Source: a virus
Direction: 5' to 3' (one strand)
DNA length: 64,000 bases
IMG/VR virus record: IMGVR_UViG_3300034072_000578
Coordinates: 32,001 to 96,000 of that record
The position numbers were made by a program, and so were the translations under genes. Below the pieces are notes generated by a model. It was not told the origin of the DNA. It searched no databases and worked only from the letters and a program-made list of their open reading frames with translations. Below are positions 14,168 through 46,955 of this stretch, piece by piece (the first letter of the stretch is position 1; each line of letters begins with the position of its first letter).

Positions 14168-14249
14168 CCCCTAGTAACAACGGCGGCTACGAACCGCTAG
14201 TAACGTAACTGGATTGAAAATGCAGGTTCGAATCCTGTCTAGGGGTCCA
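14168..14249 (+). tRNA. tRNA-Arg(ACG)-like RNA lacking a D-arm
   Basis: Acceptor CCCCTAG/CTAGGGG-T-CCA, anticodon arm GGCGG-CTACGAA-CCGCT and canonical T arm; D-arm replaced by 7 nt; 23-nt variable region. Confidence 0.65.
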
Positions 14250-14333: not shown

Positions 14334-14393
14334 ATTTAAACTGTCCTCATTTGGCCAGTTATGACGAATTACGGGACTTAATTGTCCATATAT

Positions 14394-14467
14394 GGCCGGT
14401 TACGTTAATAGTAAACTACCCTCCTTACAAGTGGGGATCAGCGGGGCAGAACCGCTACTGGCTACCA
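14394..14467 (+). tRNA. tRNA-Val(TAC), atypical T-loop
   Basis: Loop CTTACAA and CCA; T-loop is GGCAGAA instead of TTCRAAY. Confidence 0.7.
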
Positions 14468-14473
14468 TTTATT

Positions 14474-14881
14474 ATGACATACAAAATAACAAACTGTAAT
14501 TATTGCAATGTAGAATTCAGATATTGTGATTCGAAAAGAACTGGTAAGTTTTGTTCTAACCAGTGTTTTCAAGATCATAGATATGAATTCGTTACTAGGC
14601 CGAATATTCTTTTAGGTTTGACGGACGCCAAACAATTAAGAGATAGACTTCTAAAAGATACTCCTTATTGCTCAGAGTGTGGAGTAGGAGAGTTTTGGGA
14701 AGGTAAGAAGTTATCATTACAGATCGATCATTTTGATGGCGATAGTGATAACAACGCCCCTTATAACTTAAGAGTTTTGTGTCCTAATTGTCATTCTCAG
14801 ACTGATAATTATGGGATTAAAAATAAAGGATCGTCATCTAGACGTTCTAAATATCTAAAAGAATATAAATCTAATTACTAA
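14474..14881 (+). CDS. HNH endonuclease
   Basis: 'CSECG...LQIDHFDGDSDNNAPYNLRVLCPNCHSQT'; start at MTYK after the tRNA. Confidence 0.85.
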   Translation: MTYKITNCNYCNVEFRYCDSKRTGKFCSNQCFQDHRYEFVTRPNILLGLTDAKQLRDRLLKDTPYCSECGVGEFWEGKKLSLQIDHFDGDSDNNAPYNLRVLCPNCHSQTDNYGIKNKGSSSRRSKYLKEYKSNY

Positions 14882-15880: not shown

Positions 15881-16372
15881 ATGACAGAATTAGATAGGTT
15901 TTTATCTTATATTTTAGTTTCTGAAACAAACTGTTGGGAATGGCAAGGCGCTTTAAGTGAAAAGGGCTATGGCGTTTTCAACATGGGTTCTAGAAAAGAA
16001 GGTAATAAAAGAACTATAAGAGCGCACCGATATTCTTATATGAAATATAAAGGCGAATTGGGCGAACTTCTAGTCTGTCATAAGTGCGACAACAGAAAGT
16101 GTTGCAATCCAGATCATCTTTTTTTAGGAACTGATGAGGATAACATTAGGGATATGTGGGCTAAGGGTAGGCAACCTCCACCTTTAGTCCAACTAGGGTC
16201 AGCAAATAATAATGCCATCTTGGATGATGTTAAAGTCGCTAAAATCAAATCTCTACTAGATACTTTTAACAATAAAGAATTAGGCGCTATGTTTGGCGTC
16301 AAGCATTCAACTATATCCAAAATAAGAACGGGTAGAACTTGGGTGCATGTTCAGGGATCGTCTAATGGGTAG
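15881..16372 (+). CDS. HNH endonuclease with C-terminal HTH
   Basis: 'CWEWQG...AHRYSY...VCHKCDNRKCCNPDHLFLGT..DN'; the stop codon lies inside tRNA-Gln. Confidence 0.9.
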   Translation: MTELDRFLSYILVSETNCWEWQGALSEKGYGVFNMGSRKEGNKRTIRAHRYSYMKYKGELGELLVCHKCDNRKCCNPDHLFLGTDEDNIRDMWAKGRQPPPLVQLGSANNNAILDDVKVAKIKSLLDTFNNKELGAMFGVKHSTISKIRTGRTWVHVQGSSNG

Positions 16373-21497: not shown

Positions 21498-21574
21498 GCG
21501 CGTTTAGCTCAGTTGGTAGAGCAGTCGGCCCCTAATCCGACAGGCCACGGGTTCGATCCCTGTAACGCGCACCA
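21498..21574 (+). tRNA. atypical tRNA with 8-nt anticodon loop CCCCTAAT (Arg-CCT or CTA)
   Basis: Otherwise canonical cloverleaf with CCA. Confidence 0.75.
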
Positions 21575-25565: not shown

Positions 25566-25594
25566 TTGCACCGAATCGATTCGTCGCCTAGATA
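25566..25594 (+). promoter_or_regulatory. promoter of large ncRNA with palindromic double GANTC
   Basis: TTGCAC-CGAATCGATTCG...-TAGATA with a 17-nt spacer. Confidence 0.65.
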
Positions 25595-25639
25595 GAGATC
25601 ACCGGCAAGGAAACGAACCGGTCGCTGCTTGAAGCGGAT

Positions 25640-26415
25640 AAGCTAGAGTAATCTGGTGAAAGGTTAGGAGCCAAACCAAGCCGCCTAGTAATAGGTCAAC
25701 TTAAGCAACATGGAACTGACCGAAAGGTTCCTCTATACAAGTAGGGGATAGATTGAAGGATAAGGGTTTTAGGTCCGAAAGGATAACTAGCAGAGCTAAT
25801 CGGTGAGCTAGTGAAGTCGCAAACACCTGCACCAAGCAAAACTTATTCGAAGTCGATAGTGAACCATAAGGGTAATAGTTCGACCATTAGCGTGGAAGAG
25901 CATTAGCCAGTTACCAAAGGTGGAGACACTTTACGTAACCGTTGAGTAGCCCGCAAGGCGAAAGACATGAGGCGTGTGGCATGTTGTTCCCCAAAAGGGA
26001 ATGATACCATTGGACAAGCACGTCTTAACTGGAAACAACTTAGCATAACGGTAATGCGATGGACTCTTAATCCATTGATTGTTGGTTCAAATCCAGCAGT
26101 TGATTCATCAACGCAAAGCCTTGTCCAGCTATAAGTGAAAGGCACCTAAGCCCTACCTAGAGTGGGGGCATGAAGTCTCGCAAGGATGGATTGTTTGTAG
26201 TGGAAGAACTCATTGCTCTTTAGCGGGAGCTTAATGGAGGTAAAACTTCAATGGGATTAAGATACTATGAGTAGCTTGTAGTGATATCGCAAATGCCAGC
26301 GATTAATAAAATGGCGGTGTTGGTAGTTACTATGATACCTTGACCGGGTTATAGTGGAAAAGGCCCTAAACAATAAGGGGTTTAAGACTGCCCTTAGTAA
26401 GTGTATTCTCAGCTT
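25640..26415 (+). ncRNA. GOLLD-like large structured RNA (~780 nt)
   Basis: ORF-free with its own promoter; 5' AAGCTAGAGTA pairs with 3' TATTCTCAGCTT; many GNRA-capped hairpins; next to tRNAs. Size, context and terminal sequences resemble GOLLD as I recall it (no covariance search run). Confidence 0.7.
26034..26105 (+). tRNA. tRNA-Lys(CTT) embedded in GOLLD-like RNA
   Basis: D arm, ATGGA-CTCTTAA-TCCAT anticodon arm, GTTGG-TTCAAAT-CCAGC T arm; no encoded CCA. Confidence 0.75.
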
Positions 26416-26428
26416 GCTAATTACATAT

Positions 26429-26477
26429 GGGGATAATCGCGTAAAGTCATTGGTCTGACCGCTCGGTTTCCCCACCA
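26429..26477 (+). ncRNA. mini acceptor-stem RNA ending in ACCA
   Basis: GGGGA.../...TCCCC-ACCA, 49 nt, no T arm. Confidence 0.4.
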
Positions 26478-26478
26478 T

Positions 26479-26556
26479 GGCCTATGTAGCTCAGTCCGGT
26501 TAGAGCGTCCGATAAATAAGGAAGGTCGTTGGTTCGAATCCAACCCTAAGGCCCCA
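26479..26556 (+). ncRNA. tRNA-like RNA with collapsed anticodon arm
   Basis: Canonical D and T arms and CCA; anticodon arm is only TCC-GATAAATAA-GGA. Confidence 0.6.
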
Positions 26557-26557
26557 T

Positions 26558-26654
26558 AGCGCGGTAGTTTGAGTGTGCTTCTGGACAGAAGTATGCAGAC
26601 AAAACAGCTTTCGGAGGATTGAAGACGGGGGTTTGAATCCCTCTCGCGCTTCCA
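26558..26654 (+). ncRNA. tRNA-like RNA with hairpin inserted in the D region
   Basis: AGCGCG/CGCGCT-TCCA acceptor, GGGG-TTTGAAT-CCCT T arm, long hairpin TGTGCTTCTG-ga-CAGAAGTATG. Confidence 0.55.
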
Positions 26655-26656
26655 AC

Positions 26657-26766
26657 GGGACGGTAATTCAGCGGTAGAAGACGAAACCTTGTCTAAGCCC
26701 TTTGAGGGTGATGGACCCCAAGACAAGGCCAGATAGTCGGAGGTTCGATCCCTCCCCGTCCCGCCA
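26657..26766 (+). ncRNA. tRNA-like RNA with branched domain replacing the anticodon arm
   Basis: GGGACGG/CCGTCCC-GCCA acceptor, D-like arm, perfect T arm; CCTTGTCT/AGACAAGG helix encloses a further hairpin. Confidence 0.65.
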
Positions 26767-26982
26767 CTTAATAACATTGAAACATGATGGTCTGCACATT
26801 GTCATGTTTCAACCTTGTTAAGTTTCACATTATCGGTGGGCTGAAATCCAGCGATAGAGGCAAGCCCCTAAGCAAGGCTCCTACGTGAACCTAATCCATA
26901 GTGTTAGGAGCGATGATTTACGCTAGCTATGATTAGGGGAAGCTAGAAAGGTTATAGACCTGATAAACTTCCCCTTCTTAGT

Positions 26983-27059
26983 GGACCCTTAGCTCATTTG
27001 GTTAGAGCGACGGACTTTTAATCTGTAGGTGCTGGGTTCGAATCCCAGAGGGTCCACCA
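26983..27059 (+). tRNA. tRNA-Lys(TTT)
   Basis: Canonical cloverleaf, loop CTTTTAA, CCA. Confidence 0.93.
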
Positions 27060-27182
27060 CTTACTTAGTAGTGATAGAATACGGGTTGGTTCTTCAATTT
27101 GCTTTTGCCCAAAAGCTGTCGATCCGTATTCTTTCTTTATTAAGTGGGGTGTTATGTATTTTCTTACGTTATGACCTACCAA

Positions 27183-27266
27183 GCCCTCTTGGCGTAATTG
27201 GTAGGCGCAGCAGACTTAAAATCTGCCGGTTGATCCGTCTCGGTTCGAGTCCGAGAGAGGGCACCA
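27183..27266 (+). tRNA. tRNA-Leu(TAA)
   Basis: Class II cloverleaf, loop CTTAAAA, CCA. Confidence 0.92.
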
Positions 27267-27425
27267 AGTTTCAGAGCCAACTTCGCGGGCGTCTCCATCC
27301 GCGAGAAAACACCTAGACATACCCTCTTGCATGTGGGTAGTTAATGGACGGTGGGGTAAAAGCCCTCAATATGCAGCGTTATATGACTGGCCTTCGGTGT
27401 CGCAACCTAGCCTTTCGACTAACCT

Positions 27426-27447
27426 AGGCCCTTCGGGGCCTTTTTTT
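27426..27447 (+). terminator. intrinsic terminator closing the RNA operon
   Basis: AGGCCC-TTCG-GGGCCT followed by a T tract. Confidence 0.85.
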
Positions 27448-27460
27448 GGAGTCTTACTAA

Positions 27461-44569: not shown

Positions 44570-45016
44570 TTAATCTTCGATTCGCAGCAGCTTCACCCCA
44601 GATTCGGCGAAAAGCTGTTCCGAAAGGGCAATCTCATCCGCCCATCGCGTCAAAAGATCGTCAGATGCCGGGATTGTATAGACCGTCTTGATGCCATTAG
44701 ATATGATCTTTAATGCACACTTAGAACAAGGTGGATGCGTTACAACCATTCCATATCCGAAAGTGCATTCTCTCTTATGGTCTAATGCGTTGGCTTCTGC
44801 GTGGACGATACGGTCATATTTCCACTGGCGATCAGCTATCATTCTCTCTAGGTTATCTGGGATGCCCCTAGGAAGCCCGTTAAAGCCGCATGAGACGATG
44901 CTTTTGTCTGGGCGGTATATGATAGCACCGACTTTCGTAGAAGGGTCTAGGGAGCCTCTGGCGACCGCCAAGGCCACATTTGCGAAATAGTTCTGCCATT
45001 TACTATTCAACAACAT
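44570..45016 (-). CDS. dCMP deaminase
   Basis: 'KVGA', 'GFNG', 'VHAEANA', 'PCSKCA'. Confidence 0.9.
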   Translation of the reverse strand: MLLNSKWQNYFANVALAVARGSLDPSTKVGAIIYRPDKSIVSCGFNGLPRGIPDNLERMIADRQWKYDRIVHAEANALDHKRECTFGYGMVVTHPPCSKCALKIISNGIKTVYTIPASDDLLTRWADEIALSEQLFAESGVKLLRIED

Positions 45017-45461
45017 TTAATACCGCGAATTCTCCATGATGCTCTATGGCTGCAAGGTTGTATGCTTTTGCTGCATCCTTTGGGTCCGAATAATAACCCA
45101 GATGCTTTGTTTTCTTGTTATAAGTGATTTTAGCGCACCATCTATTGCGCTTCTTATCGAAATGGACACCCTTAAAGCCGCTAGTGTTCCTACTCGTTAT
45201 CCTAGTATTGTAGGCATTTTGGCCTATACTTGCGTTTCTAAGATTGGATAATCTATTATCTAGTCGGTTTCCGTTCTTATGGTCCGCCACACCCTTGTCT
45301 AAATTCAGAATGAAACGCTGCATCGTGATACGGCGTCCACATATTGTAGTCTGTGCGTAGCCATTCTCATCTATCCACCAAGAATAATAGGATAATAACG
45401 GATATAGCTCTTCATCAATTAGAATCGGTGTCCCATTAGTTGCCAGAATCTCATTCGTCAT
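45003..45461 (-). CDS. HNH-AP2 endonuclease
   Basis: 'DHKNGNRLDNRLSNLR' plus AP2-like 'SGFKGV...HLGYY...AAKAYN'. Confidence 0.9.
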   Translation of the reverse strand: MTNEILATNGTPILIDEELYPLLSYYSWWIDENGYAQTTICGRRITMQRFILNLDKGVADHKNGNRLDNRLSNLRNASIGQNAYNTRITSRNTSGFKGVHFDKKRNRWCAKITYNKKTKHLGYYSDPKDAAKAYNLAAIEHHGEFAVLNVVE

Positions 45462-45535
45462 AGGAGGGTTTCTCTTCTTTCTTCTTATTAGGGATAACTT
45501 GCTTCCTTTTGAAGCGGACTTCTACCGCAAAGGGA

Positions 45536-46466
45536 TTACGGGTCTTTCTTTTTGGTTCTTTCTTCATTGTAAACTCTTAGTCTTTCCATTCCTGCGGGTG
45601 CAATGAGCATGGAACCCCGGATATATACTTCCTTGTCCCAAACTCTTTCCGATCCAGATATCATTCTGATGTTCTCCACGCCGATGATTTCGGTTAGTAG
45701 CTTGTTCCATAGATCGCTACGGGTCCAAGTGATGTCCCTATAGACCCAACCGGGAGCTTCTAGTTGCTCTTGCATGGCTTCTTCGATGGCATTGTGCATA
45801 CTCATCATTAGTTCTTTATCATTCATTCTACACCTGTGAGGCTGATAGTTTCGACAAGAGTTTTTAGCGACTCTGAAATTTAGAGCCATTTCTTAAAAAC
45901 AGCCCAAATTACCCTTATTTAGCGTTTATTTGTAAACATTTATAAGGACGTTTGGGCTGTTTTTATTATAGTTGTATAAATGCGTTTTTAACGGATATTA
46001 ACTTTCTTCCTCGTCTTCGGGAAGCCAATCAACCCATTCTTCCGGCCATTTATAGGACGGTGACGTTAGATAACTTGCCATTTACAAAGTCTACCTTGAT
46101 TAAGCCAGCGTGATTATCTTTACCGGCGTTTCTTTTGGCATCCTCTGGAGTGTCATAATATGCCCCGGTAATATCGGTGTAAACGTTGGTATATTTGCTC
46201 ATCATCACCGGTGGTTCTACTAGGTCTAGCGGATGCTGCGAATGTTCATACTTGCCGGTAGTGGCGTTGTAGGCGGTAATAGCACCGCAATAATGACCTT
46301 CGTTATTGTAAGAGTAAGCAATCTCTTCATGGGCTTCATCACTGCCCCACTTCTTGCCGCTTTCTACTAGAGCGACAATTGGATAATCGCCTTTCTTAGT
46401 AGTGCAGATGATGCGGGCATTATGGCCGCTTACAGTTACATATTTCTTAGATGGATCAATCTTCAT
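45536..46466 (-). CDS. two hypothetical genes (45536-~45808, 46050-46466)
   Basis: Co-oriented ORFs. Confidence 0.5.
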
Positions 46467-46469
46467 ATA

Positions 46470-46955
46470 TTACCTTTCGTAAACGCGAAACTTCTGTGAA
46501 GCGAAATCCCAAGCAATGATCCGGCCCCCGCATGACAGATGGCTCTTACAAGCCTCGCGGACGGCCTCTACAGCCTCAACGCCGTTGTTTAGGTAGTGCT
46601 GGGCTATGTGCTGGCCCGATCCCCACGCAGCAGGCTCTGTGACCGTCGCAAACAGGCCGGTAGTCTCTAGCTCGATGCACCTGCCAGCTTTGTTAACCAG
46701 AATAGCGGTGGTGTCATACATACCCGGATAGTTGCTATCGTCGGGCGTTTCAAACGGCTCAAAACCGTTCTGCTCGATATGGGCGATCCATGGTTCGATA
46801 ACCATTACTGCCCCGCAAAATGCCCCTATGAACTTCCCTAGGGTTGGGTGGTTTACTTCTCTTAGTTTCCATTCCTTATCTGAAACTAAATTATCACCGA
46901 TAGTAGACCGACCATCGGCTACTAATAAGGTCTTATCCCAAGCAATTACTGTCAT
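46470..46955 (-). CDS. Ntn-hydrolase/HslV-like peptidase
   Basis: N-terminal Thr ('MTVIA...ADGR'), 'WGSG', 'AVEAV'. Confidence 0.7.
   Translation of the reverse strand: MTVIAWDKTLLVADGRSTIGDNLVSDKEWKLREVNHPTLGKFIGAFCGAVMVIEPWIAHIEQNGFEPFETPDDSNYPGMYDTTAILVNKAGRCIELETTGLFATVTEPAAWGSGQHIAQHYLNNGVEAVEAVREACKSHLSCGGRIIAWDFASQKFRVYER

Follow-up and report, generated by a model that had tools for sequence, protein, structure and literature searches.

The window analyzed here, a stretch of 64,000 nucleotides, corresponds to bases 32001 to 96000 of a viral record of 108,412 bp that has direct terminal repeats, and ARAGORN finds 26 tRNAs in it. On its plus strand, downstream of genes for vWA, TerB, and TerC and a terminator, lie a GOLLD RNA and, directly after it, four CCA-ending units that are designated a to d. 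The region of the array is free of open reading frames, and the locus is best explained as a noncoding RNA operon of about 1.85 kb, which runs from a promoter through GOLLD, units a to d, a hairpin, tRNA-Lys, a second hairpin, and tRNA-Leu to a terminator. The features are as follows.

25566..25594, plus strand: putative promoter of the RNA operon (TTGCAC, 17 nt, TAGATA; CGAATCGAT within the spacer), read from the sequence
25967..26415, plus strand: GOLLD RNA, conserved 3' domain (Rfam RF02032, 183.6 bits, E = 1.5e-51)
26034-26105, plus strand: tRNA-Lys(CUU) without CCA, embedded in GOLLD (ARAGORN and Rfam)
26429-26477, plus strand: unit a, 49 nt, 3' end ACCA; bulged hairpin closed by GGGGA/UCCCC, without a T loop
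26479-26556, plus strand: unit b, 78 nt, 3' end CCCA; near-tRNA with D and T arms
26558-26654, plus strand: unit c, 97 nt, 3' end UCCA; tRNA shell with an oversized D region
26657-26766, plus strand: unit d, 110 nt, 3' end GCCA; tRNA shell with a 55-nt insert
26767..26823, plus strand: long hairpin beginning right after the CCA of d (inverted repeat; fold z -5.6)
26983..27059, plus strand: canonical tRNA-Lys(UUU) with encoded CCA (ARAGORN; Rfam 68.8 bits)
27060-27147, plus strand: paralogous long hairpin directly after the CCA of tRNA-Lys (inverted repeat; fold z -6.3)
27183..27266, plus strand: canonical tRNA-Leu(UAA) with encoded CCA (ARAGORN; Rfam 58.2 bits)
27426..27451, plus strand: intrinsic terminator with a G+C-rich hairpin and, after it, a run of T (terminator scan)

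We infer promoter function for 25566 to 25594 from three sources: the sequence itself, the motif TTGNNN-CGAATCGAT-N6-CCTAGATAGA that is also present after TerC in the relative G001, and the starts of RNA-library contigs described below; the consensus scan made no call at this position. Between this promoter and 27426 the terminator scan found no intrinsic terminator, the one at 27426 being the first.

GOLLD forms a 14-mer cage, and we know of no function for it. Its 5' domain probably starts near 25601. The full GOLLD model (positions 1 to 416) ends at 26415 and unit a begins at 26429, 13 nt later, so that a to d lie outside the model. GOLLD is located in tRNA islands and its linker may hold a tRNA (PMC12286853, PMC6582537), and the locus conforms to this known arrangement by the tRNA at 26034 to 26105. 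A full-text literature search combining GOLLD with "tRNA-like" returned incidental mentions only, and the term "RNase P" is absent from the text of PMC12286853. In a soil DNA run and in one wastewater RNA-type library, the embedded tRNA carries the anticodon TCT rather than CTT (26066 C>T, 26067 T>C), and its closing pair is changed in compensation (26063 A>C with 26071 T>G); the linker tRNA has thus switched from a Lys-CUU to an Arg-UCU type between near-identical phages, with the stem kept.

The two long hairpins have common ends (ACTTA...TTAAGT), and each of them lies directly 3' of a CCA, which indicates that d occupies the place of a real tRNA in a repeated module. The hairpins could be processing or stabilizing elements of the operon. 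Neither of two ORF-free plus-strand stretches within the operon, 26824 to 26982 (about 160 nt) and 27267 to 27425, matches an Rfam family. The first of them opens with a T-arm-like remnant (26836 to 26852), and another sequence takes its place in the close relative X5.

Anatomy of the four units

The preliminary description placed four back-to-back CCA-ending units right after GOLLD, and the coordinates bear this out: the array occupies 26429 to 26766, with spacers of 1, 1, and 2 nt at the a/b, b/c, and c/d borders. The base preceding the unit is T for a, b, and c and C for d. All four end in NCCA, like the free-standing tRNAs of this phage. With its default settings ARAGORN makes no call on any of them; the preliminary description had expected pseudo or undetermined calls. 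Similarity searches were equally silent: blastn of 26429 to 26766 against 50,697 phage records returned nothing, and blastn of 25950 to 27300 against all phage records gave matches solely to canonical tRNAs.

Unit a is the 49-nt minihelix-like RNA of the preliminary description, a bulged hairpin (helix of 5+5 bp; minimum free energy, -18.4 kcal/mol; z -2.9) followed by ACCA, in which the Rfam tRNA model (RF00005; gathering threshold, 29 bits) has no match. Unit b has the D and T arms and the 3-bp anticodon stem ascribed to it, the latter closing a 9-nt loop; its acceptor has flaws that had gone unmentioned, with 5 of 7 positions paired (i.e., two mismatches) plus one extra nucleotide. It scores 33.4 bits with the Rfam tRNA model and 38.7 bits with our own model R1. 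Its best Escherichia coli match is a tRNA-Ile (E = 0.6) and its phage matches are tRNAs of many identities; a derivation from tRNA-Ile(GAU) would be only a lead.

Unit c has a fully paired acceptor (7/7) and T stem (5/5), and its T loop, UUUGAAU, is noncanonical. As described earlier, a hairpin sits in the D region (the D stem GUUU/AAAC encloses a 30-nt loop bearing a hairpin with a z of -2.8) and a normal anticodon arm is missing, its position being taken by a weak hairpin of merely 4 to 5 bp. The Rfam tRNA score of c is 24.5 bits, under the cutoff. In unit d, the acceptor is fully paired (7/7), the D arm carries the usual GG, the T arm is canonical (5/5), and the anticodon arm is replaced by a 55-nt insert composed of an 8-bp stem and an inner hairpin (z -2.3). 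The perfect acceptor and T arms and the replacement domain of about 55 nt attributed to d thus stand, whereas the branching of that domain is not established. The Rfam tRNA score of d, 36.9 bits, is obtained only when the alignment is local and passes over 53 nt in the place of the anticodon arm.

Taken over the array, a tRNA-type 7-bp acceptor with CCA and T arm is present in c and d, the acceptor is imperfect in b, and a offers a bulged helix with ACCA; a canonical anticodon arm (5-bp stem and 7-nt loop with U33 and an anticodon) is absent in all four. These features support the prediction that a to d are tRNA-shaped, CCA-ending units unable to decode. The shells of c and d are not a product of chance, since a T arm with a 7/7 acceptor and N-CCA occurs at 22 sites in the window versus 0.07 per shuffle; in shuffles, the combination of perfect acceptor and T stems seen in c and d is rarer by a factor of about 300. 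For a, a crude pattern of its type is met about 2.8 times per shuffled window, and the case for this unit therefore rests on its context.

The interiors gave no common theme. Alignment of the inserts of d, its counterpart in G001, other G001 units, c, and an orphan unit revealed no common motif. The inserts of b, c, and d were also considered for Shine-Dalgarno-like motifs, which were rejected: their best pairing with the 16S 3' tail reaches -10 to -14 kcal/mol, a strength that is also found in canonical tRNAs and in 6 to 19% of random 90-nt windows.

Other unusual elements occur elsewhere in the window. A fifth CCA-ended tRNA-like unit (14168-14249, plus strand) is situated between an ORF and tRNA-Ile, with no ARAGORN call and an Rfam score of 27.4 bits; its acceptor is paired 7/7, its T arm is canonical, the D arm is missing, and it carries a long extra region and an anticodon-like hairpin with the loop CTACGAA. 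A tRNA at 21498-21574 (plus strand; Rfam 57.3 bits) has an 8-nt anticodon loop, is reported by ARAGORN as "tRNA-???" (anticodon ccta), and may be a suppressor or frameshift-type tRNA. HNH homing-endonuclease-like ORFs lie among the tRNAs at 14351-14881 and 15881-16372 (plus strand), as in the tRNA regions of T4 and T5.

Known tRNA-like RNAs of phages and other systems

The array had been put forward as an undescribed system, a claim that we do not uphold, as T5 and T4 carry annotated tRNA-like stable RNAs in such arrays; a to d belong to a kind long known from these phages. In the T5 genome (NC_005859), RNA1 and RNA2 are annotated as "tRNA-like stable RNA with unknown functions" and RNA3 as "putative tRNA-like RNA," and RNAI, RNAIII, and RNAIV are annotated as well. 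RNA1, RNAI, RNAIII, and tRNA-His of T5 are arranged head to tail with spacers of 0 to 4 nt, comparable to the 1 to 2 nt found here. In T5 RNA1 and RNA2, a canonical T arm is combined with an acceptor-like stem, and folded inserts replace the anticodon arm, in the manner of c and d; RNAI, a long hairpin with a GCCA end, is comparable to a. HNH endonuclease genes are also found in the T5 tRNA region. The locus differs from that of T5 in that the array follows GOLLD, CCA is encoded by every unit, and the phage is not a T5 relative, given that its portal protein is nearest those of Rhizobium phage RHEph10 and of Klebsiella, Escherichia, and Salmonella phages at 48% identity.

In T4 (NC_000866), species 1 and species 2 (rnaC and rnaD) are small stable RNAs that adjoin the last tRNA of the cluster at 1 and 6 nt. 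The rnaC RNA, which abuts rnaD and tRNA-Arg, lacks an anticodon arm; its T arm is canonical (CCGGG-TTCGAAT-CCCGG) and its 3' strand is acceptor-like. The T4 arrangement has two units where the present one has four; it encodes no CCA, lacks a large RNA upstream, and shows no sequence similarity to a to d. No homology of a to d to the T5 or T4 RNAs was detected by blastn; the class is one of build, not of sequence, and a to d share its features: a position in a phage tRNA cluster, spacing by a few nucleotides, and a shell or hairpin with NCCA and without a usable anticodon arm. Members of the T5/T4 class accumulate as discrete stable RNAs in infected cells, and a to d would be expected to do likewise. 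To our knowledge, phage tRNA-like stable RNAs have remained without a function since the 1970s and 1980s.

T5 also has a larger RNA with a GOLLD-like layout. RNAX (L127, NC_005859 40848-41566) is an annotated 719-nt stable RNA that lies unspaced next to tRNA-Arg and in which a tRNA-like stretch is embedded (38.3 bits with the Rfam tRNA model); it has no match to the Rfam GOLLD model.

Outside phages, the tRNA-like folds 3' of the long RNA MALAT1 (mascRNA) and the t-elements of plant mitochondria recruit RNase P, and the resulting cut makes the 3' end of the long RNA and frees a small tRNA-like RNA. They are likened to the present units by mechanism and not by membership, for they are eukaryotic, unrelated in sequence, and single, and cleavage in the present array is proposed.

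Two other classes of structured RNA were rejected. ARAGORN in tmRNA mode found none in the array, and the Rfam tmRNA model reached 7.1 bits (E = 4.2). No Y RNA family, YrlA included, is among the Rfam matches up to an E value of 10, the ends of a to d lie at the acceptor and not at a Ro-binding stem, and no TROVE domain (Ro60) is encoded in the whole 108-kb phage.

Relatives, GOLLD 3' ends, and RNA libraries

Two relatives (X5 and G001) were available for comparison. X5 is a near-identical phage in the soil DNA run, with flanks that differ by about 0.7% and a sequence that departs from the window after 26822. Unit a is identical in X5 and unit d has one change. Unit b is cleanly absent, skipped over 79 nt from CCA to CCA (from 26474 to 26554). 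Because b is missing from so close a relative and has an imperfect acceptor, it looks dispensable and is probably a decaying tRNA. Unit c carries 16 substitutions and 2 deletions, all within 26578 to 26637; its acceptor and T stems are unchanged, its D-region hairpin is gone, and its T loop now reads TGCAAGT. With the changes confined to an interior that diverges by about 19% between flanks that differ by about 0.7%, c has been rewritten or replaced within a constant shell.

G001 is the sole relative in the viral collection (TerC, 66% identical; helicase, 76% identical). After the same promoter motif it has no GOLLD; a hairpin follows, and then a 118-nt d-like unit (L002:4801-4918) with a 7/7 acceptor, a 4/4 D stem, a 5/5 T stem, GCCA, a 63-nt insert, and no anticodon arm. 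This unit has no sequence similarity to d. The tRNA cluster of G001 (L122, G001 44647-46707) contains several further odd CCA-ended tRNAs, among them a 99-nt unit with a long hairpin as anticodon arm and a GACA end, a 98-nt unit with a doubtful ARAGORN call of Thr(ggt), a Pro-like tRNA with an odd T arm, and a His-like tRNA whose T loop, TGCAAGT, is the same unusual loop as in the X5 version of c.

Searches for additional relatives added little. An exact pattern from d found nothing in the viral contigs, and the promoter pattern found G001 only. The 179-amino-acid downstream protein, the helicase, and TerC as anchors recovered G001 and one uninformative contig only, and metagenome scans yielded nothing further. 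Few tRNAs, and no GOLLD, are present in the Rhizobium phages that are nearest by portal. The bacterial homologs of TerC come from Sphingomicrobium, at about 51%.

A pattern for the GOLLD 3' end matched 119 viral loci (L003-L121), of which 73 are distinct and have enough downstream sequence. In 14 of these 73, a tRNA (11 loci) or an anticodon-less tRNA-like unit (3 loci) begins 6 to 16 nt downstream. The other 59 have no tRNA-like unit after the 3' end; some of them are probably false pattern matches in coding sequence, and many of the 59 have a textbook intrinsic terminator 25 to 40 nt downstream. In five loci, Rfam confirms a GOLLD that ends 3 to 12 nt before the tRNA or tRNA-like unit. The units that abut GOLLD include a 59-nt tRNA entirely without an anticodon arm (L065:7165-7223) and, in the L006 type, units of 113 to 116 nt with two T arms (e.g., L006:2569-2684); L033 and L086 have more such tRNA-like units after the first tRNA. 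Since either a terminator or a tRNA-shaped unit comes after the GOLLD 3' end, the two look interchangeable for 3'-end formation, which points to RNase P cleavage as a possible alternative route to the GOLLD 3' end.

The stretch from 25609 to 26822 is covered by contigs from wastewater libraries of RNA type in three studies, and the coding genes on either side have none. Contig starts are at 25609 and 25625, one contig ends at 26822, and the GOLLD/a, b/c, and c/d borders are all spanned; a 151-nt metatranscriptome contig joins the GOLLD 3' end and a. This coverage fits a single transcript from about 25601, and the border-crossing contigs fit precursors or contaminating DNA equally, assembled contigs showing neither RNA ends nor abundance. 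Library depth over tRNA-Lys and tRNA-Leu was rejected as evidence for this phage, the loose ends there coming from other organisms. In two studies, the GOLLD part (25609-26394) was recovered without neighboring genes in wastewater RNA-type contigs, which would be consistent with an RNA particle of great stability in the environment.

Proposed processing of the array and alternative readings

We tentatively favor, with a confidence somewhat short of even, the reading in which a to d are processing modules of tRNA origin, host RNase P cuts them, and a sets the GOLLD 3' end. For bacterial RNase P, a stack of acceptor and T stem with RCCA is enough. Each unit appears to retain what the host tRNA-processing enzymes read, namely an acceptor helix on a T arm or hairpin, N73-CCA, and mostly U at position -1, and to lack what the ribosome reads. 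RNase P would cut on the 5' side of each unit, the cut before a would create the GOLLD 3' end, and the 1 to 2 nt after each CCA would be trimmed off; the products would be small CCA-ended stable RNAs of the kind of T5 RNA1, RNA2, RNA3, and RNAI and T4 species 1. The units would be exchangeable cassettes bounded by CCA, with c and d kept for their shell.

Evidence for processing modules comes from the abutting NCCA-ended units, their place in a single operon, the contig coverage, the survey of GOLLD 3' ends, the shells of c and d, X5 and G001, and the RNAs of T5 and T4. Other observations speak against it. One module would suffice to end GOLLD, and four exceed that need; a lacks a T loop and is statistically weak; the T loop of c is noncanonical and differs between close relatives; and in 59 of the 73 pattern loci the GOLLD 3' end has no tRNA-like unit after it. 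The d-like unit of G001, in a phage locus without GOLLD, argues against a GOLLD-tied role of d.

Alternatively, the processed forms of c and d, and perhaps of a, might act in trans as mimics of the tRNA top half, serving as decoys or sponges for host factors that read the acceptor stem, the elbow, or CCA, e.g., defense nucleotidyltransferases or tRNA 3'-end nucleases, so that real tRNAs would be protected. We consider this unlikely. It gains from the G001 unit, in which the shell is intact and the sequence has turned over fully in the absence of GOLLD, and from the further anticodon-less units in the tRNA clusters of G001 and the window. The concentration of changes in the interior of c is what an arms race might produce, but it could equally be a recombination tract. 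We know of no target, b is dispensable, and no phage-encoded partner was found among Ro60/TROVE proteins, CCA-adding enzymes, and RtcB. Anticodon nucleases, which the preliminary description had named among the toxins to be decoyed, are an unlikely target because no anticodon loop is offered. The wider proposition that c, d, the G001 d-like unit, and the GOLLD-abutting units of Lactobacillales prophages make up a functional class of processed CCA-ended "top-half" tRNAs, acting in trans as acceptor-end decoys or as adaptors or cargo of the GOLLD cage, is likewise doubtful.

It is similarly improbable that the units are mere relics, i.e., tRNA genes that are leaving a fast-turning array, damaged by indels and still transcribed and cut, yet useless. 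Unit b would suit such a description, with its acceptor mismatches and its loss from X5; the HNH homing endonuclease genes among the tRNAs make rearrangement likely, the inserts share no sequence, and the Lactobacillales prophage units, with their two T arms, resemble fused tRNA pieces. Neutral decay, however, would strike the stems too, whereas the acceptor and T stems are perfect in c and d, in the G001 unit, and in the units next to GOLLD (with CCA also kept in the present array), and the decoding part alone has been lost. In addition, the d-like unit persists where intergenic sequence has diverged beyond recognition. The earlier argument against simple decay is supported at least for c and d, by their perfect shells, the G001 unit, and the stems of c preserved in X5; b is probably decaying.

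A third possibility, which we judge to be quite improbable, is that the units are partners or cargo of GOLLD, attached to it or docked on it and stored or displayed by the multimeric cage. They lie directly 3' of GOLLD, one contig connects its 3' end with a, and the papers on the cage structure propose storage of tRNAs in it (PMC12286853, PMC12990946). The preliminary description had also suggested partners of the large RNA. Pairing with GOLLD was rejected, as the duplex energies of the interiors of a, c, and d with it equal those of shuffles; a d-like unit occurs in G001 without GOLLD, and at many GOLLD loci a terminator closes the RNA and a tRNA-like unit is absent.

Working tRNAs interrupted by introns, whose removal would restore the anticodon arm, are very improbable and were rejected for inconsistent calls: the ARAGORN intron option forces calls on the G001 unit, G001 44815, and L006, and at lowered thresholds also on c and d, but the calls vary with the settings (Cys or Tyr for c, Pyl for d), the intron positions are noncanonical, U33 is missing, the option yields nothing in a to d at default thresholds, and we know of no splicing route for 9- to 29-nt tRNA introns in bacteria or phages.

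The locus unites GOLLD and phage tRNA-like stable RNAs in one small operon. Together with the survey, it suggests a rule by which the GOLLD 3' end comes either from a terminator or from RNase P acting at an abutting tRNA-shaped unit, and this rule gives a handle on the mature ends of GOLLD in vivo. The array also provides a compact system of four cassettes with natural variants (b missing, a different c) for the function of anticodon-less shells. If the units are punctuation only, they would belong to ordinary phage tRNA-cluster biology; if the trans-acting class is real, it would give a function to the old stable RNAs of T4 and T5.
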